Source: an uncultured Candidatus Saccharibacteria bacterium
GTDB lineage: Bacteria > Patescibacteriota > Saccharimonadia > Saccharimonadales > 2-12-FULL-41-12
Assembly (NCBI GenBank): GCA_964648105.1
Contig: CAZYMH010000003.1
Location: 91,172-155,171, forward strand
Length of the DNA: 64,000 nucleotides
Reading direction: 5' to 3'
The first letter of the stretch is position 1, and every line of letters begins with the position of its first letter. The translations under genes were made by a program, and so were the position numbers. Below are positions 2,660-46,962 of this stretch, piece after piece. The notes below the pieces were generated by a model. That model worked only from the letters and a program-made list of their open reading frames with translations. It searched no databases and was not told the origin of the DNA.

Positions 2660-3343
2660 TTATAAATTATATGTCCCAATTGCTTTATCACTTACAACTT
2701 TACCACCCTGAATTGTCACAACCCGCCGCTTGAGTTGGTTAACAATCTCTTGGTTATGAGTCGTAAGCAATACAGTTGTGCCATATTTGTTAATCTTTTC
2801 TAGAACTCTTATTACATCCCAGGCGTGTTTAGGGTCAAGATTGCCGGTAGGCTCATCAGCAATCAAAATTTTAGGCTGACGAACAATCGCCCTAGCTATG
2901 GCCACCCTCTGTCGTTCGCCACCCGATAGTTCCCTAGGATAGCTTTTTTCTTTACCCTTAAGCCCTACTATGCTCAAAACTTTTGGTACAGTGTATTTGA
3001 TTTCTCGCTTACCTACACCAACTACTTCCAGGGCGAAAGCAACGTTCTCAAAGACTGTCTTGTTAGGCAAAAGTTTAAAATCTTGAAAAACTACGCCAAT
3101 TCGTCGCCGCAATTTAGGAATTTGACGATCTTTAAGGCGTTCATAATCTATACCACCAACCACAATCTTACCACTACTTGGTTTCTCTTCCCTGGTAAGA
3201 AGCTTAAGTAAAGTCGACTTACCTGCACCACTTTGCCCAACCACAATTACAAACTCCTTCGGTTCGATATGTATGGTTATGCGATCCAAGGCTACACCTG
3301 CTTTTTTGCTGTATGTCTTACTTACCCTATCCAATAAAATCAT
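2660..3343 (-). CDS. ftsE: Cell division ATP-binding protein FtsE
   Basis: Walker A GQSGAGKST, ABC signature LSGGERQR, Walker B ILIADEPT. The 227-aa length is typical of FtsE. Confidence 0.93.
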   Translation of the reverse strand: MILLDRVSKTYSKKAGVALDRITIHIEPKEFVIVVGQSGAGKSTLLKLLTREEKPSSGKIVVGGIDYERLKDRQIPKLRRRIGVVFQDFKLLPNKTVFENVAFALEVVGVGKREIKYTVPKVLSIVGLKGKEKSYPRELSGGERQRVAIARAIVRQPKILIADEPTGNLDPKHAWDVIRVLEKINKYGTTVLLTTHNQEIVNQLKRRVVTIQGGKVVSDKAIGTYNL

Positions 3344-3366
3344 AATACAATAACCATTATAGCAAA

Positions 3367-4059
3367 CTAATTGAGAGAGGCCTTAACAATTATACGGTCA
3401 GCATAGGTTTGACTAGCTCTGTCAAACGTTCCGCCACAAGTTATAATATTTAACTGAGATTTTATAGTCGGATCTTTTTCAAACAGTTTTGCCGATGCCT
3501 TGTCTTCTGGTACTTGAGTGACTGATTTGACGCTAAAGGTTTTGATAGAATGATCACCCATTTCTATCTCAATTGTGTCTCCAACTCTAAGCTTTTTAAG
3601 ATTTTTGAAAACCCCGTCAGAGTACTTTCCAGAAACATGACCATCGATAATACTTAGGCCAACAGAACCAACCGCTTCGGATTGGTTATACCAACCAGCT
3701 ACATTAATATTTGTTGGCACGTCAACTTGTTCATTCTTAAGACCAACCTGCTGAATAAAACCTTGAATCAGATTATTTTTGGCTGTAATTTTGCGTGGTT
3801 TATCGGCTGCAACCTTATAGTTTGAGTTTATATCAATCTTAGTCTCATCTGGTCCATCAGTTAATGGTGCATTGGTATAAACAGTTGGATGTGTGGTAGA
3901 TTTAACGGTTGGATTATTAGCTGCCTCCGTCTTTTTTGGATGCATCGGATAAAGTGAAAAAAATGAGATAATGATTAAACTCGCACCTAAAAGCACACTA
4001 GTATTTAGACTAATCTTCTTTTTTATCTTAGTTGTTTTTTTATCATATTTATATTTCAT
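3367..4059 (-). CDS. Sortase (class F-like), membrane anchored
   Basis: N-terminal TM. Catalytic His in IIDGHVSG, catalytic Cys in LNIITCGG (the TLxTC-type motif), and a conserved Arg in ADRIIV. Confidence 0.8.
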   Translation of the reverse strand: MKYKYDKKTTKIKKKISLNTSVLLGASLIIISFFSLYPMHPKKTEAANNPTVKSTTHPTVYTNAPLTDGPDETKIDINSNYKVAADKPRKITAKNNLIQGFIQQVGLKNEQVDVPTNINVAGWYNQSEAVGSVGLSIIDGHVSGKYSDGVFKNLKKLRVGDTIEIEMGDHSIKTFSVKSVTQVPEDKASAKLFEKDPTIKSQLNIITCGGTFDRASQTYADRIIVKASLN

Positions 4060-32764: not shown

Positions 32765-33555
32765 TACTTATTCCCCTTATTATTTACAGTTTTTTGCAAT
32801 ATTTCTTTAGCTAATGACTTATAGGCTCTTGCACCTTTGCTCCATTTATCATATTCATCTATCGACTTGCCATAGCTAGGTGCCTCGGCTAAACGCACAT
32901 TTCGTGGAATAGTAGTGGTAAATAATTTGTTACCAAAATGTTTATTCACTTCATCATATACTTGCCGTGATAATGAATTACGTTTATCATACATGGTTAT
33001 CAATACTCCCAATAATTCTAAATTGGAATTGAATTGAGCTTGAACATGTCTCATTACTTGTAATAATTGGCTCAGGCCTTCGAGGGCGTAATACTCTGAT
33101 TGAACTGGTATCAAAACTTTATTTGCTGCTGTTAGTGCATTGATAGTTAGCAATCCGAGAGCTGGCGGACAATCAATAATAATAAAATCGTAATCCGAAA
33201 TAATATTTTGTAGAGAGTTTTTTAGGATTTTTTCCCTGTCTTTTAGATTAGATATATCGATTTCGGCACTGGCCAATCGAGCGTTAGCTGGGAGTAAAAA
33301 AAGATTATTAACATTCGTTGGTTGGACTACCTTTTGTGGGTCGAGACCCGAAACTAGTACGTCGCACAATGTTTGGTTAATTGTCTGTTTGTCAATCCCG
33401 ACTCCACTTGTTGCGTTAGCTTGAGGGTCAGCGTCAATCAATAATACCTTGTTTTTTGATTTGGCCAAAAGTGCCGCCAAATTAATAGCGGTGGTAGTTT
33501 TACCTACACCTCCCTTTTGATTAAGTATAGCAATTATTTGATTTGACATTACCAT
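32764..33555 (-). CDS. parA: Chromosome partitioning ATPase ParA/Soj
   Basis: Deviant Walker A NQKGGVGKTT and DCPPALG. It overlaps the parB start by 1 nt. Confidence 0.94.
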   Translation of the reverse strand: MVMSNQIIAILNQKGGVGKTTTAINLAALLAKSKNKVLLIDADPQANATSGVGIDKQTINQTLCDVLVSGLDPQKVVQPTNVNNLFLLPANARLASAEIDISNLKDREKILKNSLQNIISDYDFIIIDCPPALGLLTINALTAANKVLIPVQSEYYALEGLSQLLQVMRHVQAQFNSNLELLGVLITMYDKRNSLSRQVYDEVNKHFGNKLFTTTIPRNVRLAEAPSYGKSIDEYDKWSKGARAYKSLAKEILQKTVNNKGNK

Positions 33556-33603
33556 AAGTATATAAATAAATTATACCCTAAAGCTTAAGTGTTAACTAAT
33601 AAA

Positions 33604-35100
33604 TTATATGTGACGCCGCATAATTAGTGCGGCCAATATACCAGCGACAGACAATATTTGAGCCGTACTAAAAATAATGAAAATTGGTTTAGAAACTTTA
33701 GTTTTAGGTAACGGCCCCAGACCAATATCGATATAATTAGCCTGTTTAGCCATAGGATTTGGGTAATTTTGTATATTTGTATAATCATTAATATCGGATT
33801 GCGTGATCTCGCTTTGATCAATCACGTTATCACCATTTTTGTCGATCGCTATATCATCTTTACCATCTCCATTGAAATCGGCTTTGAGTTCACCACTGTT
33901 TCCAACTCTTTGAATATCACTAGTGATTCTTGTTGTTGTTTGAGAATTATTGGACGAAGTGGGCGTAGGCGTCGGAGTTGGGGTCGGAGCTGGGGTCGGC
34001 GAAGGAGTTGGGGTTGGTGTAGGTGTCGGAGTTGGGGTGGGAGCTGGAGCTGCAACTTGTGGTCCATAACCTGCACATGGACTACCTGATTTAAGTGTAA
34101 AATCTTTGCCAGCTCGATTGTTATACATCGGATCCGCCACCACTTTGTTGCCAGAATAACTAAAGCCACCATTTACAGCACTAATATTACTATTCGATGA
34201 ACTAGCTAAACAATTATTATTGGCAACGTTGCCAGAACCAACTGGTCCGCCCCACCATGACTCGATATTTGCACCAAGGCCATTGTTATAGGTAATGATA
34301 TTATTTTGGACGATATTGTTACTGGAAGGTTCTGACGATTCACCCGAAAAAGTAACTCCCCGTTTGAAACCATCTACAACATTATATTCAAATACTACCC
34401 CTTGTGAATAAGGATAAAATTGAATGCCAAAATCAGGTCCATCATATAGGTAATTGTTGGTGATTTTAGTAACAGGACTGCTGGCCGTGTAAGCAACATA
34501 AATTGCCTGATCATGAACTACACTACCGCAGTTGTGAATTTTGTTACCATCGACTATCAGCCCTGAGACTTGGTAAACATAAGTAGGTGGAATTCGTGTA
34601 CCAATATTAAGACAAATGCCACGGCTGCCTGGATTGGTAATGTCATTAGACTGGATCGTGACATTATTTGAATTAACCAAAATGCCAGCTTGACCTTGTC
34701 CTCTTCCCTGTAGTCTTAGATATTGCAAACGTGAATTATCTGAACCAGGCTTGAATTCGATCTGGCCATAAATGTAAGCTTTATTATTAGGATCTTTGGA
34801 AGTAATATTGATATTTTTGTTAACAATCAAATCCTCACTGTAGCTTCCGCCGTTGAGGCATAGCATGGCACCAGGCGAGATCGAATTAAGAGCAGTATTA
34901 ATCGACCCACTCGATATTTCTTTGGCACAAGCTATTGGTGCTACCGCCGCTCGACTCGAGCGAGATTTTAAGACAATAAAGCCTGAAATCAAGCCCGAAA
35001 AACTTATTACTCCCAAAACAAAAATAATAAAAAACCACGAATTATATAACATTACTTTTTTATCGACTTTTTGGTGCTGACTAAATGATTCTTGTTGCAT
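33604..35100 (-). CDS. Membrane-anchored right-handed parallel beta-helix protein (polysaccharide lyase/hydrolase-like)
   Basis: N-terminal TM. About 300 aa of beta-helix coils (NVTIQSNDITN, IVDGNKIHNCG, IVQNNIITYNNG, NVANNNCL). A (P-T/S/A)n linker. A D/N-rich Ca-binding-like stretch (FNGDGKDDIAIDKNGDNVIDQSE). The C-terminus carries LPKTK, a hydrophobic span and RRH. A GAGGTAAG SD begins 1 nt after the giant gene stop codon; the two ORFs are separated by a 9-nt gap. Confidence 0.75.
   Translation of the reverse strand: MQQESFSQHQKVDKKVMLYNSWFFIIFVLGVISFSGLISGFIVLKSRSSRAAVAPIACAKEISSGSINTALNSISPGAMLCLNGGSYSEDLIVNKNINITSKDPNNKAYIYGQIEFKPGSDNSRLQYLRLQGRGQGQAGILVNSNNVTIQSNDITNPGSRGICLNIGTRIPPTYVYQVSGLIVDGNKIHNCGSVVHDQAIYVAYTASSPVTKITNNYLYDGPDFGIQFYPYSQGVVFEYNVVDGFKRGVTFSGESSEPSSNNIVQNNIITYNNGLGANIESWWGGPVGSGNVANNNCLASSSNSNISAVNGGFSYSGNKVVADPMYNNRAGKDFTLKSGSPCAGYGPQVAAPAPTPTPTPTPTPTPSPTPAPTPTPTPTPTSSNNSQTTTRITSDIQRVGNSGELKADFNGDGKDDIAIDKNGDNVIDQSEITQSDINDYTNIQNYPNPMAKQANYIDIGLGPLPKTKVSKPIFIIFSTAQILSVAGILAALIMRRHI
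33958..34050 (-). repeat. Low-complexity (Pro-Thr/Ser/Ala)n linker-coding repeat
   Basis: Encodes APAPTPTPTPTPTPTPSPTPAPTPTPTPTPTSS. The DNA consists of GGNGTN-type dinucleotide-codon repeats. Confidence 0.9.
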
Positions 35101-35109
35101 ACTTACCTC

Positions 35110-38100
35110 TTATTGTACCGCCAAGTAATCGAACTCGTATATTTTATTTGGAGCAAGTTGATTAGTAATTTTAATTGTAAACTCAGTTTGACTGATGTCT
35201 TTAAAGACAGTTATGTTTTCTGCATTGTTATTTGATGGCTCTAAGAATATTTTTGGCTTTTTTAAGTATGGAGTATGGAAAGTGATTTTTACCGTCTGAC
35301 CTGGTGTAAATGCCGAAGTCATGCCAGTAGTATCAATCTTTACTGTACCAGATATATCATTGCCTTCAACTGATACAACTGGTGGAGTTGTATTGCTACC
35401 CAAATTTATGCCTGTTGCAAGTTGAGCAGCTGGAGTATTGCCATCAGTTATAAAGTGACCGAAGACTATGATATTTCCATTAAATACTGCATTATTAGAT
35501 ACTTCGAGTGAATTAGCTTTTAAGGTGCCACCGATTGTTAAGTTAGATAATTGTGCAAATTCTGTGCCTTGTAAATCTACCATTGGAACGTAATATTGAG
35601 TTTGCACAAAGATTTCTACAGTTGCGCCCGTAGAACTAGTTAAGGCTCGTCCAACAATTAGACCTTCTTTGGTTGCTTTTTCGCCTACCCCATCACTGGC
35701 TGAGATAGTTATTGGATCTCCAGCAGTAACTGTGCCTTTTATCTTGAGAGGCACTCGACCAACTAATGCCACTAATCGTGTATCTGTGCGATTGGCCTCG
35801 TAATCTCTTAATGCTAGCCCTGGTGATGTAGACACAATACCAAGAATATTTTCTCTATCACTTGATGAAGCTCTCTTGAGTTTGCCGCTAGCAGGATTAA
35901 TAGCTACTATTTCACCAGCCATGATACTTTGATCTTCAACTGTATACTCTTCCGCAAGGTCAAAGTTAGCAATCGAGAAGCTCTTTCCGTAATAGTTAAC
36001 AGCGTACACATTGTTGAAGTAGTTGCCTACACTACCAATGTTTACGCCACCGGAAAATACACCACCAGAGGTTTGAGAACACAAATTATTTGCACAAAGA
36101 GTAACCCTTAAGTCATCATTAGTCTCGTCGTTATATACCAATAGTGGAAGACCGTTAGGCATTATAGCTATGTCTGACTCTTGACCTACATCATTAGTAG
36201 TTTCTACTGTTGTAGAAGTATTCCCAGTTGAACAAGCTAAGTTTCCACATTTGAGAACCTTTACATCATTCCCTGATTCATCTTGATGAATAATAATTGG
36301 GAAGCCGTCTGGGCCAACTGCTACTCTTGGGAAGTAGGCCACATTGTTAGCAACATCATCAACCGTTGTACTAACATTGCCAGAAGCACAAGCTGTGTCT
36401 CCACATTTTGTAACTCTAAGAGCTCGGTTAGTAAATAAGTTGTAAGCTATAAATGGCAATCCATCAGATCCTATTACTATGTGCGCATACTCACCTGTAT
36501 CGTTAGTTGAGTCATAGGCACTTGCTGTATTACCGGCAGTACAATTTAAGTTACCACATTTAAATACCCTACCGTCACCATTTGTCTGATCGTAGTGAAC
36601 AATAATTGGTAATCCATCTGAACTGATGGCCACATTTGAATCCCAACCTACATCATTTGTAGTCTCAATTGAAGTAGTTGTGTTGCCAGAGGAGCAGGCT
36701 GAATTACCACATCTTGTATATCGTAAGTCTCCAGAAGTTGCCAATCTGTAAGAAATTACTGGGTTACCGTCTGGCGCAATAGCAATTGATACAAATTTAC
36801 CTGTATCGTTAGTTGTATCAACAGAAGTTATTGTAACTGTTCCCGAACAATCAGCAGTACTACACTTTGCAACTTTTAAGTCGTCGTTGGTGTCATCATG
36901 GTAAGCAATAACCGGATATCCGTCAGCACCAATTGCAACATCATTATATGTTCCATAGTTGTTAGAACTAGAACCACCATCGATTGTCACTGAGGTAGAA
37001 GTGCTACATGCTGTATTTGAACATTTTGTAAGTATCATGTCTGCCTCTGTGGCACTTACGAATGAATAGTGGGAGATCACTGCAAACCCATCTGTTCCAA
37101 GTGCTACCCTAGTCTGATTACCAACATCACCGGTCGTCTGTGTGCTTGTAGTGGTTTGAGTAGAAGATGATTGTGTTGGAGCTACACTAGCAATCAAATC
37201 GCCGTTAAATGTACTCTTCCCAAGTACGCTAATATCACCTTGGAATTGCGCAGCGCCAGCTACAGTTAGAGAGCCCCCAATTGTAGTGTTGTTATAAATA
37301 GTTACATCTTGAACGTTTATTGTTGTACTCTGGATTGCACCTGTTTCCAATTGCTGGACATAAGCTTCTCCCAAGTCAAAAACTTGAAGCTGGTCATTAG
37401 TATAGTTTGGAACATACGCATATCTTCCGCTTATAGCGAAATGCCATGGATCATTACCAGTAGTAACTGATTCTATCAAAACTGGAAGCGCTGGGTTAGA
37501 AATATCAAATGTTACTAACTTGCTTGTGGCACCTTGGTTGCTAATACCATACATCCGTCGCCCTTGGACTACTAAATCTTCTACGCCAGCATCAGAAAAT
37601 ACACTGGTTACTTCTACTATTGCTGATGGATTGCTTATATTCATTACATAGATACTAGATACATCATCAGAAACATATGCATAAGAACCGTTAACCGCAA
37701 GTGCTAAACCAGCAGTTGCAGTCGCCTCAACATCAACACTTGCTAGGGCGGATGGGTTGCTAATATCAATTATGTTTAGTGGGCTAGTAGCATTATTTTG
37801 TGCCACATACATGTATTGGCCTTTTATAAATGCTTTTTTAGGGTTGTTAATATTTGTTGAAAAAGTACTAACAAGTGATATGTTTGTTGGATCGGCAATA
37901 TTATAAACATAGATAGAATCACCTAAAAAGTCATTAAGTACGAATGCATACTGACCAGAAACTGCCACGAATGTTGGATAATCTCCTGTGGCTATAGAGT
38001 CCACCAAAGTTGGTGCATAAGGATTAGAAATATCTATGACTGCCAAAACGTCAGATGAGCTCATTGGCATGTAGGCGTAGTTACCCTTTACGGCTACGTG

Positions 38101-41100
38101 TTCTGGATTTATTCCAGCAGCAGAAAAATCAGTACTGCTAATAACTACTGGGTTCTTAGGATCCGTAATGTCTACTACGTCCAAGTCCGATTCATCATAA
38201 CTAGCGACATATGCATACTTACCTTGGATTGCTATGCCTTCAACTCCGTTACTCAAACCGCCACCCGTAGTAACTGTAGCAATGGCGCTGGTTATAGTTT
38301 TGCCAGAAACATTTATTCCTCCTACAACGTTTACAGAGCCGTTTACAAATAAGTTATCCCAGAAATTAGCTTGCTGCTGAACATCTAGCGTGCCAACTAT
38401 ACTTGTATTTCCAGCAGTTAAGGATCCACCAGTTCCACCTTCGCTTAAGTTTTCTCCGCTTAGGCTAACTAAATCGAGTCCCCCGCCCAGTGTTATTCTT
38501 GGAGTACTTACGTAATAAACCGCAGATGTAGAACCTCCTAGAGAGTAAAGATACCCGTTGTAAGCAAATGACATCATATCAGATCTAGTAGCAGGTAAGT
38601 TATTGGTATTAGTAGTCCACGCTGTTGTTGTTCCATCGCTGTTAAGCTGAGTGTAATAAACAGAGTTAGTTGCTGCAGCTCCATCCCAACCACCATAGTA
38701 GTAAAGGTAGCCATTGGCAACTTGTAATGCACCCCAAGCCCTATTGCCTGGAAGTAAGTCTGCTTCTGCAGTCCAAGTCCCGATTGATCCATTTGTTGTT
38801 GAGATTTTTGAATAATAAAGATCATCTTGTGAGGTAGTTCCTGATTGACCACCAACTGCATATAGATAGCCGTTAGCAACAGTTACGTTAACCCCTCTTC
38901 TTACTGCAGCAGCCGGGAATACATTAGCGCTTAAAGTCCAAGCACCTAGAGTACCATCAGCATTTTGCTTAGCATAATATGTATCACCTACGGCAGAAGC
39001 TGTGCTCGAACCACCAACTATGTATATATAGCCGTTGTATGCAACAACACCGGAAGCATACCTTCCCGCAGGTAAAGCAGTTGTTGCAACCCAGTCACTT
39101 ATAGTTCCATCTTTATTTAGTTTAGCAACATAAGATGTTGTTTGAGCTGTTGCCGAAAGATTACCCCCAATTGCGTACAAATATCCATTACTTGCAACAA
39201 CCATAATATCTTCTCTGGCTGCCGGCAAAACCGTTGATGTAGCAAATGACCCCAATGATCCGTTAGCATTAACTTTTGCGTATTCAACTTTTGTTGTTAT
39301 TCCAGCACTATCGCCACCAACAACATAAACATACCCGTTTGCGTAGGCTGTTCCAGCATTAGAAGTTGATGCTGTTAGACTATTGCTGTTTGTAGTCCAT
39401 GTATGCAGTGCCCCGCTATTATTTGCAAGAAGAGAGATGCCCCCTCCGTTTGTAGAGTCTATATTAAATAACGATCCTGATGTGGCGTTTTGAATAGCAA
39501 ACGCTGTTGTTGTGTTCGTTACATTTCTAAATAATGCGTTACCTCTGACATCCAGCTTGGCAGTGTTGGTTCCACTTGTTCCAAGGCCCAAGTTTCCGCT
39601 TGCATCAAATGTCATAAGTTCAACACCATTGTTTCGTAAGTTAAGTATTTTACCCGTAGTTCCGCCATCTGTTGCATCAATGAATATGCCTTGTGCAGCC
39701 GTTCCAACACCCTGCAAGTCTATTGATATAGCCGAAGCGTTACCATCAGTACCGGTTCCAGTGTGAGATACTTTTATAGTTCCTCGTCCAGTTTCGCTTC
39801 CAGAAACTTTTAGGGTGCTTTCGCTAGCATTAGAGCTAGTGACATTAAGCGCACCATTTGAAGCACCAGTTCCTGTATTTACAATATTCACAGCATTTGC
39901 AGTACCGTCGTAACTTGTGTAAATGGCAGACTGACTAAAGCCAACGTTATCTGCTCTTACACTTAGAAGCGGGCCTGTTGGTGCGGCTTGGTCGGAATAA
40001 ATTACAAGTCCAGCTCCAGTATTATTCGTATTATTAAGATTAATTGCACCACCTGTTGAACTTGAGTTAGAAGTATTACCACTTGGAGTAACCTGCAAAG
40101 TAGCTCCTGTGCCTGAGTTCTGTAAACTCAACACGCTTGCAGCCCCTGCATTGGTATTAGTAAAGCTATATAAAGTTCCTAAGAAGCTAGCAGAAGATGT
40201 GTCATTTGAATTCTTTGCCAAGTAAGCCGTGCTTCCAGAAACAGTTCCAGAACAAGTTAAATTACCATTAGCACCATTTATAGTACAACCTGTCGAAGCA
40301 GAACCGCCCGCAAATAATATGCCAGTCGCATTTACATCTCCTCCAATATTTAGCCCAACAGCATTTGTATTAAATAGGTTTGCTGTACCAGTACTAGTAG
40401 TGGTTATACTTGCACCGTTAACAGCCAAGTTACCAGAAAACGTTCCAGCTCCAGTAACCGATATATCTTCACCAAAGGCTACGGAACTATCATTCAAATC
40501 CGTAATAACTCCAGCAGTAGTTATATTAATTCCATTAGCTCCACCAACTTGCACTTGATCATTTAGTACTATGTCTCCATTGATGTCAGATATTGATCCG
40601 GCTGTATCTATTCTTATTCCGTTTGCAGAGCTACCTATATCTACTGTGTCATCAAGGACTAGATTGCCTGTGGAGTTAAGTATTGTTCCGGTCAAAGTAA
40701 AGTTACCAGTTAAAGATGCTGTTGTTGCAGTAAGACCGTATGTATTTACGGCTTGTTTAACTGAAGCGCTATCTGCTCCCGGGTCAGCAACTGAGCTAAA
40801 TGCGTTAGTCCATGTGCCTCTTGAAGTTTGAACATGCACAGAATGCATTGAGAAAGTTCCAAAATTAGCATATACATCGTATGTGTTGCGAGAACCGTTT
40901 TCTACAAATTTAACATCTGTAACTATTCTGTTCCCACCTACTGAATACCAAGATCCTTGAATGTTTGCTACTAGAGCACTGCTATTATTTGCTATCGAAC
41001 CGATAATTGTTGTTTCACCGTGATCGGTTTGGGCTTGACCATATCCTGATGAACCAAGTATGTCTATCTTAAATCTTGCGCCACTTCCGGTTCCAGCAAA

Positions 41101-44100
41101 AGTACCTATGTTTCTCCAACCCGATGACGCTGCAGAATCTTGCTCGCCAGCATTATTTCGAGTATAGATTGTGTTCAAACCACCATTTGCACTTGTGACA
41201 CCCGTGACTGCAAGTGTGGTGCTTACTGTTGTAGCCCCATTCAAACTAACAGCCCCAGTTCCTGTGCCAAAAGTTCCTGTGCCGTTTTGCACAAAGTTAC
41301 CAGATGCCATAGTCAGACCAGTAATTCCAGAGAGTACACCTCCTGAAGTTACATCAAAGTTAGATGAATCTAATGAGAAAGCTCCAGCTCCGCTGAAAGC
41401 AAAGCTTCCACTTGTTTGTGAGTATCCAGTTATATTAGTAAGACCACCACTGTTGGTAATACGGTCTGTAGAATTAGTCTGTAGTGCTCCACCTGTTGTA
41501 TTGATGGTTGAGCTAGCTGTGATTGTTGATGCTCCAGAGACAGCGCCAGCTTCTGTTATTCCTCCAGAATTATTATCAATACCGCCAGTAATAGTAGCGC
41601 CGCCAGAAGATATAGTAAGGTTTTCACCGATAGTTACACTTGCGTCATTCAAATCCGTAATAACTCCAGCAGTAGTTATATTAATTCCATTAGCTCCACC
41701 AACTTGCACTTGATCATTTAGTACTATGTCTCCATTGATGTCAGATATTGATCCGGCTGTATCTATTCTTATTCCGTTTGCAGAGCTACCTATATCTACT
41801 GTGTCATCAAGGACTAGATTGCCTGTGGAGTTAAGTATTGTTCCGGTCAAAGTAAAGTTACCAGTTAAAGATGCTGTTGTTGCAGTAAGACCGTATGTAT
41901 TTACGGCTTGTTTAACTGAAGCGCTATCTGCTCCCGGGTCAGCAACTGAGCTAAATGCGTTAGTCCATGTGCCTCTTGAAGTTTGAACATGCACAGAATG
42001 CATTGAGAAAGTTCCAAAATTAGCATATACATCGTATGTGTTGCGAGAACCGTTTTCTACAAATTTAACATCTGTAACTATTCTGTTCCCACCTACTGAA
42101 TACCAAGATCCTTGAATGTTTGCTACTAGAGCACTGCTATTATTTGCTATCGAACCGATAATTGTTGTTTCACCGTGATCGGTTTGGGCTTGACCATATC
42201 CTGATGAACCAAGTATGTCTATCTTAAATCTTGCGCCACTTCCGGTTCCAGCAAAAGTACCTATGTTTCTCCAACCCGATGACGCTGCAGAATCTTGCTC
42301 GCCAGCATTATTTCGAGTATAGATTGTGTTCAAACCACCATTTGCACTTGTGACACCCGTGACTGCAAGTGTGGTGCTTACTGTTGTAGCCCCATTCAAA
42401 CTAACAGCCCCAGTTCCTGTGCCAAAAGTTCCTGTGCCGTTTTGCACAAAGTTACCAGATGCCATAGTCAGACCAGTAATTCCAGAGAGTACACCTCCTG
42501 AAGTTACATCAAAGTTAGATGAATCTAATGAGAAAGCTCCAGCTCCGCTGAAAGCAAAGCTTCCACTTGTTTGTGAGTATCCAGTTATATTAGTAAGACC
42601 ACCACTGTTGGTAATACGGTCTGTAGAATTAGTCTGTAGTGCTCCACCTGTTGTATTGATGGTTGAGCTAGCTGTGATTGTTGATGCTCCAGAGACAGCG
42701 CCAGCTTCTGTTATTCCTCCAGAATTATTATCAATACCGCCAGTAATAGTAGCGCCGCCAGAAGCAACCGTTAATCCAGTTAATCCTGAAAGTGTGCCCG
42801 ATATTGTGCTGTTGCCGGTCACTGATATGCCGCCAGACGAAACAGTAAGAACACCTGCAGAAGTTATAGTACCCGAACCTGTAGTAGATAAATTGCCTGA
42901 AGTTGTAATGTTATCACCGGCGTTTGCAGGCGATAGTGTAGTACCGGTTCTACTAAAGTATCCGTTGGTTCCAGTGGAACCGCCAGTTATATTTCCGGTA
43001 CATGTAAGGTTGCCATTTGACCCATCTATTGTACAACCCGTTGATGCCGAGCCTCCAGCAAAATCAATTCCTGTTGCATCAACAGCACCACCGATGTCTA
43101 TACCTACCGCATTAGTATTAAATATAGTCATAGTGCCAGTGCTGGTCGTTGTAATAGCACTTCCATTAACCGCCAAATCACTGGTGAGAGTTAGTCCACT
43201 AAACTGCGGTGAAGCTCCAGTATTAATATTTTGAGGGGTGGAAAGCGTAATTGTATTCGTACTGTTTGAGACATTTATTTGGTTAGTTGTGCCCTGTATT
43301 GTTATTGAACCAGTGAAAGTATTAAGATCAGATACACTACCACCTGAGCCAGGACAGGCAGACCAAATAGGCGCACCAGCAGTAGAAGTTAGACACAATC
43401 CCGAGCCACCTGCAACCAAAGAGCTAATTGCACTTGTCCCATTACCTAATAGCACTCCATTTGCTCCTAGTGTTGTAGCACCAGTTCCACCATTTGCAAC
43501 TGTTAATGGAGAGCTTAATGTTACTGCACCAGTAACATTAAGAGCACTGCCTATTGTAACTGTTGTCCCGTTATCACTGATGTTGGAATCGCCAATTGCT
43601 TGAGAACCAGTAAACTTAGCAAGTGCGTTAGTAGTACCGCCTGCAGTAGTTACGCCAGTACCTGAACCTGCACAGTTGCCAGTTGAGAGACAAATTGTAG
43701 CCGTTCCAACACCTGGATCAGGTAATGTGTATGCAGTCGCCTGGCCAAGGTTGGCAACTTGTAAAGTACCGTTACTACCTGCCCCTGTCATTATTAATTG
43801 AGCAGTTGTAACGCTAGTTGTAAATGTTGGGTTATTAACTATAGAAATATTCCCACATGTTCCACCGCTACCTAGAGTGATTGTATTACCGCCACCACTC
43901 AAATTTCCAGTTCCAGAAGCACACACCAATGAAGTGTCACCCTGAACTGCATTTCCTGCGCTAGAACCATAAACTACATTAAGCGTTGTAGAAGAACCAA
44001 GGGCTACAGAGCCACCACCCGAAAGACCAGTTCCAGCAGTTACAGTCAAAGAAGAATTAACAAGATTTGAGTTTGCTACCGTACTAGATGCAATATCAGT

Positions 44101-46698
44101 CCCAGTAACTGTTCCGTTAAATATCTCTGCTGATGTAACACCACCCGTTGCAATAGTTACGGCACCAGAAGTTACTGAGAAGTTAGATGAGCTAAAGCTA
44201 GCAATACCTTTAGCAGCCGTTGTTGCATCATCAATTGTTATATTACTGCCAGAGCCAGTTGCATTAGAGATTGTCAAACTACCAGACAGCCCATCCAAAC
44301 TTACAACTCCCCCACCGCCTCCACCACTTCCGGAGAGACATGTTCCAAAACTAAGATTACCAGCACTATCAGTTTTTAAACAATCTCCGTTCGAACCATC
44401 TGCATCCGGCAATCTAAATACTAAATTCGATGATGGATTAGAGTTAGGCGATTGAAGAGAAACAGTGTTAACTCCCGAGTTGTTATAAAAAGTAACAGAG
44501 CCATCGTTTGTGCTAGCCGTTCCAACCGCCAAGCTATTAGCACCTTGTAAAATCAAGTTACCGTTAGCAGTTAAAGTTGAGCCACTTTGGCTCACTATCG
44601 AGTCACCAATTGAACTGGCGCCACTAAATAACGCAAGATAGCCCGTGGTTCCACCTGCCGTAGTTACACCGCCACCTGAGCCAGCACAGTTGCCAGTTGA
44701 GAGACAAATTGTAGCTGATGCTAGACCAGGATCAGGAAGAGTGTAGGTAGTGTTTTGTCCAAGTGCAGCCGTCTGTAAAGTCCCAGTATTACTTGACCCA
44801 TCATAAATAACCACACCACCGGCAACAGACGTTGTGCCAAAAGTTCCTGTGCCGCCTTGCGCTGTAAGATTACCTGTCAAAGTTAAATTACTAAATTGTG
44901 GAGAAGATGTAGTATTTAGGTCCTGAGGTAATGAAAGTGTAATTGTATTTGAACTGTTATTTACACTAACCTGGTTTGCTGTTCCTTGAATTGCTACTGC
45001 TCCTGTAAATGTATTTACAGAGCTTACTCCACCAGAACCAGGACAAGCAGACCAAGTAGGTGCACCAGCAGTTGATGTTAAACAAAGACCAGTTCCACCA
45101 GCAACAACAGAACTAATTGCTCCCGTTCCGTTTCCAATTAGCACTCCATTTGCACCTAGAGTAGTAGCACCTGTTCCACCCTGTCCAACGCTTAGTGCTG
45201 TAGTAAGCCCAGTTAAGCTTGTTATATCTGAGTTAGCTCCAGAAGCTGCAGCACCAAGATTACTTCTTGCTCCAGAAGCATTACTTGAACCTGTACCACC
45301 GTTTGTTACAGAAAGATTATTTGTAAATAATGTAGCACTGTTACGATCAACAGATCCAGAAGATAGGACGCCTCCGGAAGAGCTTTGAACTAAGCCGGCA
45401 CCAAATGAGGTTAATGTTAGACCGCTAAAAGTAGGAGTTGAATTTGTATTAATATCTTGGGGTAAAGAAAGGGTTATGACTCCAGAGTTATTATTAACAT
45501 TTAGTTGGTTGGTTGTTCCGTTAATAGTTACAGCGTTAGTAAAGGTATTTAGGCTAGAAACCCCGCTGGCATTAGCCGTTAGGGTATTACCAGAAAGCGT
45601 TAAGCCAGAACCAATAGTCACAGAACCAGTAGCTGTGTTCGCACCTTGAGTAAGATTGTTAATCATCGATGGCACTCCAGTTAATCGAGCAAAAGGTACA
45701 TTCCCGACAGTCAAGATACCTGAATTATTTACTACCCACCTATCAGTGCCGTTTTGTTGAATCTGAAGTAAATTACCTGAGCCTGTTTTGTCGATGAAAA
45801 TACTCGAAAAATTAGAAGCATCAGTTTGAGCAACTGTTGGCCCTAAGGCTACGGAACCAGAAGTACCAGAACCTACTTGAGAAATTGTATAGTTACCATT
45901 GCCATCTTCTGTTATCGTCAACAAACTAGGTGAACCTGAGACTAAAGTCATAGATGAGGCTACGGCACCGCTGTTTACAGCTAGTCCTCTGCCAAGCGGA
46001 ACATTGCCAGTTAGTCCACCAACACTAGTAACGCCGTTGTTAGATATTTGGGTACCGTTAATTCCGATGCCATTGCCGCCTGTAAACACTACATTGCCAG
46101 ACTGACCTTGCACTGAAGTTACTGGACTGGATGTTGGAGTAGAGTTGAGAGTTTCGGCAGACAGTAAATTACCTTGAAGTCGAAGACCAGAACCAATCAC
46201 CACTCCTCCTGCTACCCCTGCTATATAGCCGTTATTTCCACCCGAAGATATCTCTTTGAAGTTTTCCCCATCGTAGTAATAAATTTTCTTGTCTTGGTTG
46301 TTTAAATAAATCTGGCCAGAAATCGGAGAATTTGGAGTATTCGATGGCTTTAAAACTAGACCTCCGTTAACCGTCAAATTGCCATTCACATCTAACTGAC
46401 CTAATTGACCTAAATTAAGCTGATCAAGAGCAACTTTTGAGAATTGCGATGATGCTTGTTTGCTAACGGTATTTTTGTTGGACTGACCGTTATTAAACGT
46501 CTTCATAACAATCCAGCCAATTCCTGAAATAAGAACTAATGCTAGTACTGCGGCTAAAGTGGTATATACCGAAAATCGCGTCTCATTTTTTTTCGATAAA
46601 TTAAGATCTTGTTGAGTATAACTTGCAATATTTTTATCAAGTACTTCCGAATCGAGGGTAGTTTCTAGGCTATTAAAACCGTCCTTGTTATCAAACAT
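35110..46698 (-). CDS. Giant (about 3,862 aa) membrane-anchored mosaic surface protein with tail-fibre-like repeats and three beta-propeller-type arrays
   Basis: One uninterrupted ORF (the track gives 3,870 aa from TTG 46722; ATG 46698 is preferred). N-terminal TM (YTTLAAVLALVLISGIGWIVM). Gly/Thr/Ser/Asn-rich fibre repeats include NGGTGSSNASGARSNLG and GANSDITSLTGL motifs. See the sub-features and findings. Confidence 0.9.
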   Translation of the reverse strand: MFDNKDGFNSLETTLDSEVLDKNIASYTQQDLNLSKKNETRFSVYTTLAAVLALVLISGIGWIVMKTFNNGQSNKNTVSKQASSQFSKVALDQLNLGQLGQLDVNGNLTVNGGLVLKPSNTPNSPISGQIYLNNQDKKIYYYDGENFKEISSGGNNGYIAGVAGGVVIGSGLRLQGNLLSAETLNSTPTSSPVTSVQGQSGNVVFTGGNGIGINGTQISNNGVTSVGGLTGNVPLGRGLAVNSGAVASSMTLVSGSPSLLTITEDGNGNYTISQVGSGTSGSVALGPTVAQTDASNFSSIFIDKTGSGNLLQIQQNGTDRWVVNNSGILTVGNVPFARLTGVPSMINNLTQGANTATGSVTIGSGLTLSGNTLTANASGVSSLNTFTNAVTINGTTNQLNVNNNSGVITLSLPQDINTNSTPTFSGLTLTSFGAGLVQSSSGGVLSSGSVDRNSATLFTNNLSVTNGGTGSSNASGARSNLGAAASGANSDITSLTGLTTALSVGQGGTGATTLGANGVLIGNGTGAISSVVAGGTGLCLTSTAGAPTWSACPGSGGVSSVNTFTGAVAIQGTANQVSVNNSSNTITLSLPQDLNTTSSPQFSNLTLTGNLTAQGGTGTFGTTSVAGGVVIYDGSSNTGTLQTAALGQNTTYTLPDPGLASATICLSTGNCAGSGGGVTTAGGTTGYLALFSGASSIGDSIVSQSGSTLTANGNLILQGANSLAVGTASTNDGSVTFYNNSGVNTVSLQSPNSNPSSNLVFRLPDADGSNGDCLKTDSAGNLSFGTCLSGSGGGGGGVVSLDGLSGSLTISNATGSGSNITIDDATTAAKGIASFSSSNFSVTSGAVTIATGGVTSAEIFNGTVTGTDIASSTVANSNLVNSSLTVTAGTGLSGGGSVALGSSTTLNVVYGSSAGNAVQGDTSLVCASGTGNLSGGGNTITLGSGGTCGNISIVNNPTFTTSVTTAQLIMTGAGSNGTLQVANLGQATAYTLPDPGVGTATICLSTGNCAGSGTGVTTAGGTTNALAKFTGSQAIGDSNISDNGTTVTIGSALNVTGAVTLSSPLTVANGGTGATTLGANGVLLGNGTSAISSLVAGGSGLCLTSTAGAPIWSACPGSGGSVSDLNTFTGSITIQGTTNQINVSNSTNTITLSTPQNINTGASPQFSGLTLTSDLAVNGSAITTTSTGTMTIFNTNAVGIDIGGAVDATGIDFAGGSASTGCTIDGSNGNLTCTGNITGGSTGTNGYFSRTGTTLSPANAGDNITTSGNLSTTGSGTITSAGVLTVSSGGISVTGNSTISGTLSGLTGLTVASGGATITGGIDNNSGGITEAGAVSGASTITASSTINTTGGALQTNSTDRITNSGGLTNITGYSQTSGSFAFSGAGAFSLDSSNFDVTSGGVLSGITGLTMASGNFVQNGTGTFGTGTGAVSLNGATTVSTTLAVTGVTSANGGLNTIYTRNNAGEQDSAASSGWRNIGTFAGTGSGARFKIDILGSSGYGQAQTDHGETTIIGSIANNSSALVANIQGSWYSVGGNRIVTDVKFVENGSRNTYDVYANFGTFSMHSVHVQTSRGTWTNAFSSVADPGADSASVKQAVNTYGLTATTASLTGNFTLTGTILNSTGNLVLDDTVDIGSSANGIRIDTAGSISDINGDIVLNDQVQVGGANGINITTAGVITDLNDASVTIGENLTISSGGATITGGIDNNSGGITEAGAVSGASTITASSTINTTGGALQTNSTDRITNSGGLTNITGYSQTSGSFAFSGAGAFSLDSSNFDVTSGGVLSGITGLTMASGNFVQNGTGTFGTGTGAVSLNGATTVSTTLAVTGVTSANGGLNTIYTRNNAGEQDSAASSGWRNIGTFAGTGSGARFKIDILGSSGYGQAQTDHGETTIIGSIANNSSALVANIQGSWYSVGGNRIVTDVKFVENGSRNTYDVYANFGTFSMHSVHVQTSRGTWTNAFSSVADPGADSASVKQAVNTYGLTATTASLTGNFTLTGTILNSTGNLVLDDTVDIGSSANGIRIDTAGSISDINGDIVLNDQVQVGGANGINITTAGVITDLNDSSVAFGEDISVTGAGTFSGNLAVNGASITTTSTGTANLFNTNAVGLNIGGDVNATGILFAGGSASTGCTINGANGNLTCSGTVSGSTAYLAKNSNDTSSASFLGTLYSFTNTNAGAASVLSLQNSGTGATLQVTPSGNTSNSSSTGGAINLNNTNNTGAGLVIYSDQAAPTGPLLSVRADNVGFSQSAIYTSYDGTANAVNIVNTGTGASNGALNVTSSNASESTLKVSGSETGRGTIKVSHTGTGTDGNASAISIDLQGVGTAAQGIFIDATDGGTTGKILNLRNNGVELMTFDASGNLGLGTSGTNTAKLDVRGNALFRNVTNTTTAFAIQNATSGSLFNIDSTNGGGISLLANNSGALHTWTTNSNSLTASTSNAGTAYANGYVYVVGGDSAGITTKVEYAKVNANGSLGSFATSTVLPAAREDIMVVASNGYLYAIGGNLSATAQTTSYVAKLNKDGTISDWVATTALPAGRYASGVVAYNGYIYIVGGSSTASAVGDTYYAKQNADGTLGAWTLSANVFPAAAVRRGVNVTVANGYLYAVGGQSGTTSQDDLYYSKISTTNGSIGTWTAEADLLPGNRAWGALQVANGYLYYYGGWDGAAATNSVYYTQLNSDGTTTAWTTNTNNLPATRSDMMSFAYNGYLYSLGGSTSAVYYVSTPRITLGGGLDLVSLSGENLSEGGTGGSLTAGNTSIVGTLDVQQQANFWDNLFVNGSVNVVGGINVSGKTITSAIATVTTGGGLSNGVEGIAIQGKYAYVASYDESDLDVVDITDPKNPVVISSTDFSAAGINPEHVAVKGNYAYMPMSSSDVLAVIDISNPYAPTLVDSIATGDYPTFVAVSGQYAFVLNDFLGDSIYVYNIADPTNISLVSTFSTNINNPKKAFIKGQYMYVAQNNATSPLNIIDISNPSALASVDVEATATAGLALAVNGSYAYVSDDVSSIYVMNISNPSAIVEVTSVFSDAGVEDLVVQGRRMYGISNQGATSKLVTFDISNPALPVLIESVTTGNDPWHFAISGRYAYVPNYTNDQLQVFDLGEAYVQQLETGAIQSTTINVQDVTIYNNTTIGGSLTVAGAAQFQGDISVLGKSTFNGDLIASVAPTQSSSTQTTTSTQTTGDVGNQTRVALGTDGFAVISHYSFVSATEADMILTKCSNTACSTSTSVTIDGGSSSNNYGTYNDVAIGADGYPVIAYHDDTNDDLKVAKCSTADCSGTVTITSVDTTNDTGKFVSIAIAPDGNPVISYRLATSGDLRYTRCGNSACSSGNTTTSIETTNDVGWDSNVAISSDGLPIIVHYDQTNGDGRVFKCGNLNCTAGNTASAYDSTNDTGEYAHIVIGSDGLPFIAYNLFTNRALRVTKCGDTACASGNVSTTVDDVANNVAYFPRVAVGPDGFPIIIHQDESGNDVKVLKCGNLACSTGNTSTTVETTNDVGQESDIAIMPNGLPLLVYNDETNDDLRVTLCANNLCSQTSGGVFSGGVNIGSVGNYFNNVYAVNYYGKSFSIANFDLAEEYTVEDQSIMAGEIVAINPASGKLKRASSSDRENILGIVSTSPGLALRDYEANRTDTRLVALVGRVPLKIKGTVTAGDPITISASDGVGEKATKEGLIVGRALTSSTGATVEIFVQTQYYVPMVDLQGTEFAQLSNLTIGGTLKANSLEVSNNAVFNGNIIVFGHFITDGNTPAAQLATGINLGSNTTPPVVSVEGNDISGTVKIDTTGMTSAFTPGQTVKITFHTPYLKKPKIFLEPSNNNAENITVFKDISQTEFTIKITNQLAPNKIYEFDYLAVQ
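35584..35976 (-). other. Module near the giant protein C-terminus, paralogous to residues ~35-144 of ORF 46963-47739
   Basis: FDLAEEYTVEDQSIMAGEIVAI...ILGIVSTSPG...VALVGRVPLKIKGTVTAGDPITISASDGVGEKATKEGLIVGRALTSS. It aligns by eye with the upstream gene product. Confidence 0.6.
36075..37110 (-). repeat. Seven ~45-aa repeats with a DG-P-I...dL.v.kC....C motif (propeller-like, Cys pair per blade)
   Basis: For example DGYPVIAYHDDTNDDLKVAKCSTADCSG, DGNPVISYRLATSGDLRYTRCGNSACSS, DGLPIIVHYDQTNGDGRVFKCGNLNCTA, DGFPIIIHQDESGNDVKVLKCGNLACST. Confidence 0.7.
37360..38262 (-). repeat. Seven LVIVD-type repeats (beta-propeller)
   Basis: GKYAYVASYDESDLDVVDITDPKNP, GNYAYMPMSSSDVLAVIDISNPYAP, GQYAFVLNDFLGDSIYVYNIADPTN, GQYMYVAQNNATSPLNIIDISNPSA, GSYAYVSDDVSSIYVMNISNPSA, GRRMYGISNQGATSKLVTFDISNPAL, GRYAYVPNYTNDQLQVFDL. 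Confidence 0.7.
38484..39420 (-). repeat. Six Kelch-like blades
   Basis: Six NGY[VIL]Y..GG cores (ANGYVYVVGG, SNGYLYAIGG, YNGYIYIVGG, ANGYLYAVGG, ANGYLYYYGG, YNGYLYSLGG), spaced about 50 aa apart. Confidence 0.7.
40490..42764. repeat. Perfect in-frame tandem duplication, unit 1,155 bp (385 aa), about 1.97 copies
   Basis: 40490-41609 matched 41645-42764 (offset 1155) at every spot I checked. Antisense ORF peptides are identical (40571-40831 = 41726-41986; 41140-41346 = 42295-42501). Confidence 0.9.
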
Positions 46699-46962
46699 TT
46701 CGGACCCCTGTGAAAATAGCAAAAAATCCGATTTTTTTATGCAAAGCGGGTATATTAATTTGTATTATTTTTGCGAGATTTTTCACTTTGTTTTTTCAGT
46801 GCTTTGGTTTATTTTGCTGAAATTAGCTTACGCTTAAGTATTAATATACCCCTAAACAATATATTAATCAAATAATATAAAACAAGTTATCCACAACCAA
46901 AAAAAGTGTTCAATCAGGTCAAAAATTATATTTTTTGCTCTTCAATTTTGAATTATAAATTT

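Follow-up and report, generated by a model that had tools for sequence, protein, structure and literature searches.

How does a single gene come to hold two stretches of more than a kilobase that agree at every nucleotide, when its other repeats have drifted apart? The question is raised by a stretch of 64,000 nucleotides (nt) from an uncultured Candidatus Saccharibacteria bacterium (contig CAZYMH010000003.1, positions 91,172 to 155,171 of the forward strand, hereafter the window). In it, one giant gene encodes a protein of 3870 amino acids (aa) that, judged from its sequence, would be a membrane-anchored, tail-fibre-like surface fibre with duplicated knobs in the middle of its shaft. The identical stretches encode two neighbouring cassettes of stalk, knob and tail. 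The most likely answer, with a probability of roughly 60%, is that a recent homologous recombination made two adjacent cassettes of an old fibre array identical.

An exact repeat inside the giant gene

The preliminary description of this locus had reported a perfect in-frame tandem duplication of 1,155 bp. An exact comparison keeps the frame and the offset (1155 nt, or 385 codons), but shortens the perfect stretch to 1,120 bp: positions 40490-41609 and 41645-42764 are identical at 1120 of 1120 nt, and the match at every position claimed for these intervals stands with 0 mismatches. On either side the identity breaks off sharply, and from 38000 to 44000 this offset yields no further run of at least 15 nt. 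In the protein, residues 1321-1693 return as residues 1706-2078 (373 aa), with 0 differences between the two copies over about 285 synonymous sites. Chance is no explanation for an exact match of 1120 nt. Across the whole window, the cassette pair and a single 32-mer, likewise inside the giant gene, are the only exact repeats of at least 31 nt, and the other repeats of the gene have diverged, as had been stated before, to 62-77% identity in protein and 70-79% in nucleotides. The 32-nt exact match (43670-43701 = 44684-44715) lies within an older repeat pair that is otherwise about 70% identical, and may be a small conversion patch. The program Tandem Repeats Finder (TRF), run with a period limit of 500, did not report the cassette pair. 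A template/variable-repeat pair of a diversity-generating retroelement (DGR) was considered and dropped, the 1120-nt copies being perfectly identical and free of A-specific differences.

Read along the minus strand, on which the gene lies, copy 1 is followed by a 35-nt junction (j), copy 2 and a second linker (j'), with the coordinates given in Table 1. Each period of 385 aa has four parts: a stalk rich in G, T, S and N, a knob of about 150 aa, a tail and a linker of 12 aa. The stalk opens with the motif SGGATITGGIDNNSGGIT and its 3' end reads …GGTGCTGTTAGTTTGAATGGGGCTACAAC, and the tail is made of periodic segments of about 23 aa, with GVITDLND as its last residues. The junction j occurs a single time in the window, even with 3 mismatches allowed. 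It shares 15 of 35 nt and a G-E core with j', and the protein alignment of the two copies runs on at 53% beyond the block of identity.

Age of the junction and origin of the identity

The only close relative found is a contig of a Candidatus Saccharibacteria metagenome-assembled genome (MAG), JALHOM010000002.1 (L002), which carries a partial orthologue in the order knob A (the knob of the window), tail, junction and stalk. Residues 201-350 of the L002 protein are 90-92% identical to the end of copy 1, j and the start of copy 2, as against 64-80% to the end of copy 2 and j'. In DNA, the L002 junction aligns with j without gaps at about 70-75% identity, equal to that of the surrounding head, tail and stalk, and the differences fall mostly on third codon positions. 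Following Nei and Gojobori, the proportion of synonymous differences (pS) between the window and L002 is 0.72-0.93, that is, saturated, with a nonsynonymous divergence (dN) of 0.08-0.15, in every partition, j included. Since j is orthologous in a relative at synonymous saturation, tail, j and stalk are neighbours of long standing, and what is recent is the match between the two cassettes alone.

This junction bears directly on the idea that one ancestral cassette was duplicated in tandem de novo, through replication slippage or illegitimate recombination, with j as filler made in the event or as a sequence that diverged later. Such an event would account for just two copies, perfectly identical, with a period that is a multiple of three. 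However, a simple tandem duplication is expected to leave an identity as long as its period, and a junction composed of a prefix of the 3' flank and a suffix of the 5' flank. Here an identity of 1120 nt stands against a period of 1155, and j, which matches the downstream linker at 15 of 35 positions and the upstream flank at 8 of 35, is not a prefix of j' joined to a suffix of the upstream flank. Moreover, the duplication would have to accommodate a junction that is orthologous, of the same length and between the same neighbours, in a synonymously saturated relative. The divergence of j to 43% beside 1120 unchanged nucleotides is incompatible with neutral change, and a recent transfer of the L002 junction from the window lineage is disfavoured by the nucleotide identity of about 70%. 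A de novo duplication is thus very improbable. The preliminary description had listed the right possibilities (recent duplication, gene conversion, unequal recombination or an assembly artefact), of which a plain de novo tandem duplication does not fit the orthology of j in L002.

In L002, the second stalk is succeeded by another central module than knob A (B; 446-583 in the relative), then by tail, linker and stalk and by a third module (C). Neither B nor C has left a trace anywhere in the 64-kb window. In a second MAG (L003), the gene at the syntenic position, with a product of 2194 aa, holds the stalk-start motif 5-6 times. The differing modules of L002 and the repeated stalk motifs of L003 point to a fibre shaft built as an old array of stalk-X-tail-linker cassettes with exchangeable centres. 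L002 also contains an exact repeat of 91 nt (1-91 = 1243-1333) whose end coincides exactly with the start of knob A and of module B, and its stalks, compared with each other, show patches of 88-96% identity over a background of about 70%. Both features appear to be independent signs of recombination between cassettes. Further along, residues ~1546-1784 of L002 form a second, very diverged knob-like cassette, with about 26% identity over 270 aa to the cassette of the window.

In the preferred reading of a recent homologous recombination, gene conversion or unequal crossing-over would act through the conserved stalk and tail segments. The converted tract would span the whole homologous length (1120 nt), bounded by the diverged linkers where homology stops, and the outcome would be two identical jelly-roll knobs 385 residues apart in the middle of the shaft. 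The resulting 1120-nt direct repeat would now make the gene prone to the in-frame loss or gain of 385-aa units. As such, the event looks like ordinary recombination, of recent date, among adjacent modules of a surface protein rich in repeats, rather than like a system of a new kind. Provided that both copies are real, the fibre gene would be currently recombining, and probably variable in length or valency, in an uncultivated and host-dependent bacterium, and recombining fibre genes of this kind are candidates for host recognition. The role of the fibre itself would be to bind the host surface.

The two knobs could also be old in origin, if an early duplication of knob A was followed by unceasing concerted evolution, with selection (for avidity) keeping both knobs identical, and the relative replaced its second knob. 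The cassette-j-cassette layout is indeed old, the exact and near-exact patches between the cassettes of L002 show recurring conversion, and conversion over a long time would be expected to leave tracts cut off sharply where homology ends. However, two knobs per protein are rare, being present in one of the 80 other knob-bearing representatives, where they are 34% identical, and the second knob-like module of L002 is similarly remote (about 26%); there is, in addition, no outgroup to polarise the change. Long-standing concerted evolution is therefore a tentative and rather improbable alternative. Starting again from recent recombination, a wider scheme can be drawn, in which the conserved stalk and tail segments would be recombination handles for swapping, duplicating or deleting receptor-binding cassettes at a conserved locus formed by FtsZ, ribonucleotide reductase (RNR) and the fibre gene, the population being polymorphic in cassette number and content. 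This scheme is doubtful. If true, cassette exchange would correspond, on the chromosome, to the mosaicism of tail fibres, altering host range or avidity, and the perfect pair would be a snapshot of it.

Several points weigh against a recent recombination as the source of the pair. The L002 contig is cut within its first cassette, and its knob copy number and 5' cassette boundary lie beyond the contig. The change may have gone in either direction, with knob A taking the place of another module in the window lineage or a second knob A being replaced in the relative, there being no outgroup, and no 5' part of the L002 gene, to polarise it. That the tract ends exactly at both cassette edges would be explained by the argument that homology ends there. 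Finally, no independent assembly spans the repeat, the protein being a singleton from one NCBI contig, and the Logan contig L001 (run SRR13355620, k=31), which is 100% identical to positions 32844-40262 of the window, ends at 40262 within the downstream flanking repeat F2, 228 nt short of copy 2.

Assembly support and cassette number

The giant protein is identical to a database entry (P0005) whose source is a single NCBI contig of 164,215 bp, and which forms a singleton at 90% identity. A look-up of encoding contigs for the giant protein with two starts, P0005 and five neighbouring genes found only the 498-aa gene next to it on record, in one Logan contig. As for the end of L001, no k-mer of at least 20 nt at 40262 is repeated in the window, where nothing visible explains the stop, and this may point to variation between strains or to a paralogue in another part of the genome.

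These observations could be taken for traces of an assembly artefact, in which the true gene would have knob A, j, a second stalk, a different module and a tail, and the assembler would have passed knob A twice. L002 shows exactly that layout, and related MAG contigs break in stalks: L002 starts in its 91-nt exact repeat, and a third MAG contig (L017) ends, at ~10186, 43 aa into a stalk. Moreover, the full gene is carried by one assembly only, and L001 stops at 40262 without a reason visible in the window. The orthologous sequence of L002 nevertheless confirms that the adjacencies of tail to j and of j to stalk are biological, although it does not say which module follows the second stalk in the window genome. 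An assembler producing the pair by error would have had to reuse about 450 nt of unique knob sequence and to drop a covered alternative branch, which is unusual. The 3870-aa open reading frame (ORF) and its frame are unbroken, and modules B and C are without trace in the window. An artefact of this kind is quite unlikely.

The opposite error would be an undercount, two copies being a minimum if the assembler walked the loop formed by repeat, j and repeat once, with three or more cassettes, or a mixture, in the genome or the population. A de Bruijn graph of (A-j)n-A would give the same loop for any n>=1, a perfect direct repeat of 1120 nt is a good substrate for unequal recombination, and the repeat number of surface proteins with DNA-identical repeats differs between strains (PMC8201768). 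There is, however, nothing positive in favour of additional copies, and the other members of the family seen so far have one knob, or two strongly diverged ones, so that an undercount is unlikely. In any case, this family of fibre genes breaks or misleads MAG assemblies at the stalk repeats, where two related MAG contigs end, and the lengths and module contents of such genes in short-read MAGs are therefore untrustworthy without long reads.

The knob, the fibre and their setting

Each repeat unit had been thought to carry the sole globular head of the fibre, so that the protein would display two identical heads. Each unit does hold a globular domain, the only recognisable one in the N-terminal fibre region of 2,200 aa, and the two are identical. 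However, they are knobs in the middle of the shaft and not at its end, and they are not the only globular domains of the gene, with HylP-type, Kelch, LVIVD, Peptidase_G2 and weak H-lectin matches further along. No Pfam model matches the knob, and its PHROG matches, to tail fibre and exopolysaccharide (EPS) depolymerase families, are weak. A model obtained with AlphaFold2 (AF2) from a 39-sequence alignment is all-beta, with a predicted local distance difference test (pLDDT) of 83.5 and a predicted template modelling score (pTM) of 0.79, its strands covering residues 25-172 of a query that starts at aa 1443. The knob profile matches residues 518-641 of WceF (6TGF) in a hidden Markov model comparison (E 7e-6), and the model matches the 6TGF chains in Foldseek (E 3.5e-7, TM 0.53-0.55). 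In WceF, residues 531-667 form an eight-stranded jelly-roll sandwich after a short triple beta-helix, within a native trimer (PMC7949094). A tblastn search also relates the knob to the tailspike of Acinetobacter phage APK127v (31% identity, E 5e-8), and 41 BFVD models match it at E<=1e-3, gp37 fibres and EPS depolymerases among them. As modelled, the knob resembles the jelly-roll beta-sandwich located behind the helix of WceF and of the tail fibres and tailspikes of phages. Glycan binding or stabilisation of a trimer is the probable role of the knobs and, should the fibre assemble as a trimer in the manner of WceF and its phage relatives, two trimeric knobs would form.

A search among 1.84 billion cluster representatives recovered 81 relatives of the knob at E<=1e-3. 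At 50% identity, the family that it defines falls into about 80 clusters, with distant relatives in fold and sequence among phage tailspikes and tail fibres. An indexed protein search with the whole unit as query gave only four low-coverage stalk matches and is uninformative when negative; with the knob alone it gave no matches and also missed the giant protein itself, so that this negative is uninformative too. Both the exhaustive search and an exact look-up place the giant protein in the collection, and the negatives of the indexed search are thus unreliable for a low-complexity protein. In a scan of Joint Genome Institute (JGI) metagenomes, matches were limited to the level of the stalk, with no close relative carrying the knob.

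From N to C terminus, the giant protein is laid out as a hydrophobic anchor (aa ~52-75, read directly from the sequence), a long fibre rich in G, T, S and N, the two cassettes, a HylP-like domain, Kelch and LVIVD propellers, Cys-containing repeats of about 51 aa, a Peptidase_G2 intramolecular chaperone (IMC) domain and a weak H-lectin match (Pfam). The HylP-type domain lies directly distal to the cassette pair. Its PF07212 match was absent when Pfam was run on the whole protein and emerged only from a scan of this segment by itself, and it suggests a possible polysaccharide-cleaving activity on the surface fibre. The ~51-aa repeats follow the pattern …DG.P.I.Y.D.TN.DL.V.KC….C…, are 30-50% identical among themselves and occur also in L002. 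They match nothing in the Pfam scan, and probably form a propeller whose type of repeat has not been described before. The C-terminal end of a relative of 2525 aa (P0006) is similar, by eye, to that of the giant protein.

Table 1. Features of the giant fibre gene and its downstream neighbour, with positions in the window
Feature	Position	Strand	Residues or product	Basis and remarks
Giant fibre gene	35110..46722	-	3870 aa, TTG start	ORF list and translation
F1, diverged 70-aa repeat upstream of copy 1	42982..43191	-	aa 1178-1247	71% aa identity to F2
Cassette copy 1	41645..42764	-	aa 1321-1693; stalk, beta-sandwich knob, tail	1120/1120 identical to copy 2
Knob 1, predicted jelly-roll beta-sandwich	41881..42324	-	aa ~1467-1614
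Junction/linker j	41610..41644	-	35 nt, peptide ASVTIGENLTIS	Unique in window, orthologous to L002 linker
Cassette copy 2	40490..41609	-	aa 1706-2078	Exact comparison
Knob 2, identical to knob 1	40726..41169	-	aa ~1852-1999	Two stretches found in P0005
Linker j' after copy 2	40455..40489	-	Peptide SSVAFGEDISVT	Diverged paralogue of j
F2, partner of F1, downstream of copy 2	40234..40443	-	aa 2094-2163
HylP-type domain (phage hyaluronidase, triple-stranded beta-helix)	39586..40053	-	aa ~2224-2379	PF07212, E 2.8e-35
Seven or eight ~51-aa repeats	~36070-37200	-	aa ~3173-3550	Each with a C-x(4-5)-C pair
Peptidase_G2 intramolecular-chaperone autoproteolytic domain	~35650-35790	-	aa ~3644-3690	PF11962, 26.9 bits, cutoff 25
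H-type lectin, weak match			C-terminal 60 aa, extreme C terminus	Pfam
Downstream neighbour gene	33604-35100	-	498-aa right-handed beta-helix protein	PF13229

The neighbours of the fibre gene in the window are cellular core genes, which encode SecA, FtsZ, PriA, class I lysyl-tRNA synthetase (LysRS), prolyl-tRNA synthetase (ProRS), a class II RNR and a LytR-CpsA-Psr protein. The organism is cellular, because SecA, FtsZ, PriA, aminoacyl-tRNA synthetases and RNR are present, and it is a Saccharibacteria-type bacterium of the candidate phyla radiation (CPR). No tRNA or Rfam elements were found within the 64-kb window. In a collection of species-representative genomes, the closest loci belong to Candidatus Saccharibacteria/Saccharimonadales MAGs with FtsZ-RNR synteny: L017 has in common with the window the gene order FtsZ, a 157-aa protein, RNR and fibre, and L003 the genes downstream of the fibre gene. 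The product of the fibre gene at the syntenic locus has 2194 aa in L003, at least 3222 aa in L002 and 3870 aa in the window. Given the shared gene order and these differing lengths, the locus is therefore conserved and its giant gene hypervariable in this CPR bacterium.

In its genetics and function, the gene resembles surface proteins already described as having identical repeats, and also tail-fibre genes in their mosaic evolution. Closest to it in kind are the Periscope proteins, bacterial surface proteins of variable length with DNA-identical tandem repeats, such as SasG/Aap, Rib/alpha C, Esp, CdrA and Sgo_0707 (PMC8201768). As in these, a surface protein has DNA-identical tandem units that encode folded domains (here 1120/1120 nt, with a confidently modelled sandwich in each unit, though only two units), and, the period being in frame, whole units would be gained or lost through unequal recombination. 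With respect to a rod that projects a distal binding domain, the window protein has an N-terminal hydrophobic anchor and distal propeller, lectin-like and HylP domains, and the whole 385-aa unit, modelled by AF2 from a single sequence, reached a pLDDT of 40, too low to establish a rod shape. On the other hand, the unit of the window gene is composite (fibre, sandwich and fibre over 385 aa), in contrast to the single small domain of Periscope proteins, and its relatives carry different central modules in neighbouring cassettes. The window protein would be anchored by an N-terminal membrane helix and not by LPXTG, so that its distal end is the C terminus, and whereas repeat number varies from strain to strain in Periscope proteins, the window gene is known from one assembly.

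With phage proteins and the bacterial tailspike-like enzyme WceF (PDB 6TGF; PMC7949094), the likeness lies in the knob, which matches WceF at residues ~518-641 and the sandwiches of phage tailspikes, gp37 and EPS depolymerases. It lies also in the PF07212 triple beta-helix and PF11962 chaperone domains, and in a modular mosaic architecture with conserved linking segments, as in phage tail-fibre genes. Unlike phage tail fibres and tailspikes, the window gene stands in a cellular core neighbourhood (FtsZ, RNR, SecA) and not in a prophage, is syntenic in other Saccharimonadales MAGs, and encodes 3870 aa with an N-terminal membrane anchor. In WceF and the tailspikes, moreover, the sandwich comes once per chain after a catalytic beta-helix, whereas in the window it comes twice, in the middle of the shaft between fibrous segments.

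Giant surface proteins are already known in CPR epibionts (PMC8080830). According to the available part of that report, Vampirococcus lugosii has giant proteins of 1392-4163 aa with WD40, TPR and PKD interaction domains and, like the window protein, the giant proteins of such CPR/Patescibacteria epibionts are very large, membrane-associated and multi-domain, with a proposed part in host recognition and attachment. Exact intragenic duplications and tail-fibre-type cassettes are not mentioned in that same part. A general literature search for identical repeats in adhesins gave nothing specific.

Two minor observations concern the surroundings of the cassettes. The plus-strand ORFs within the repeat, at 41171-41713 and 42326-43234, are taken as antisense by-products of composition. 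The neighbouring 498-aa beta-helix gene is absent from the syntenic position in L003, and contains in the window a short G-rich tandem repeat of 12/18 nt at 33971-34049.

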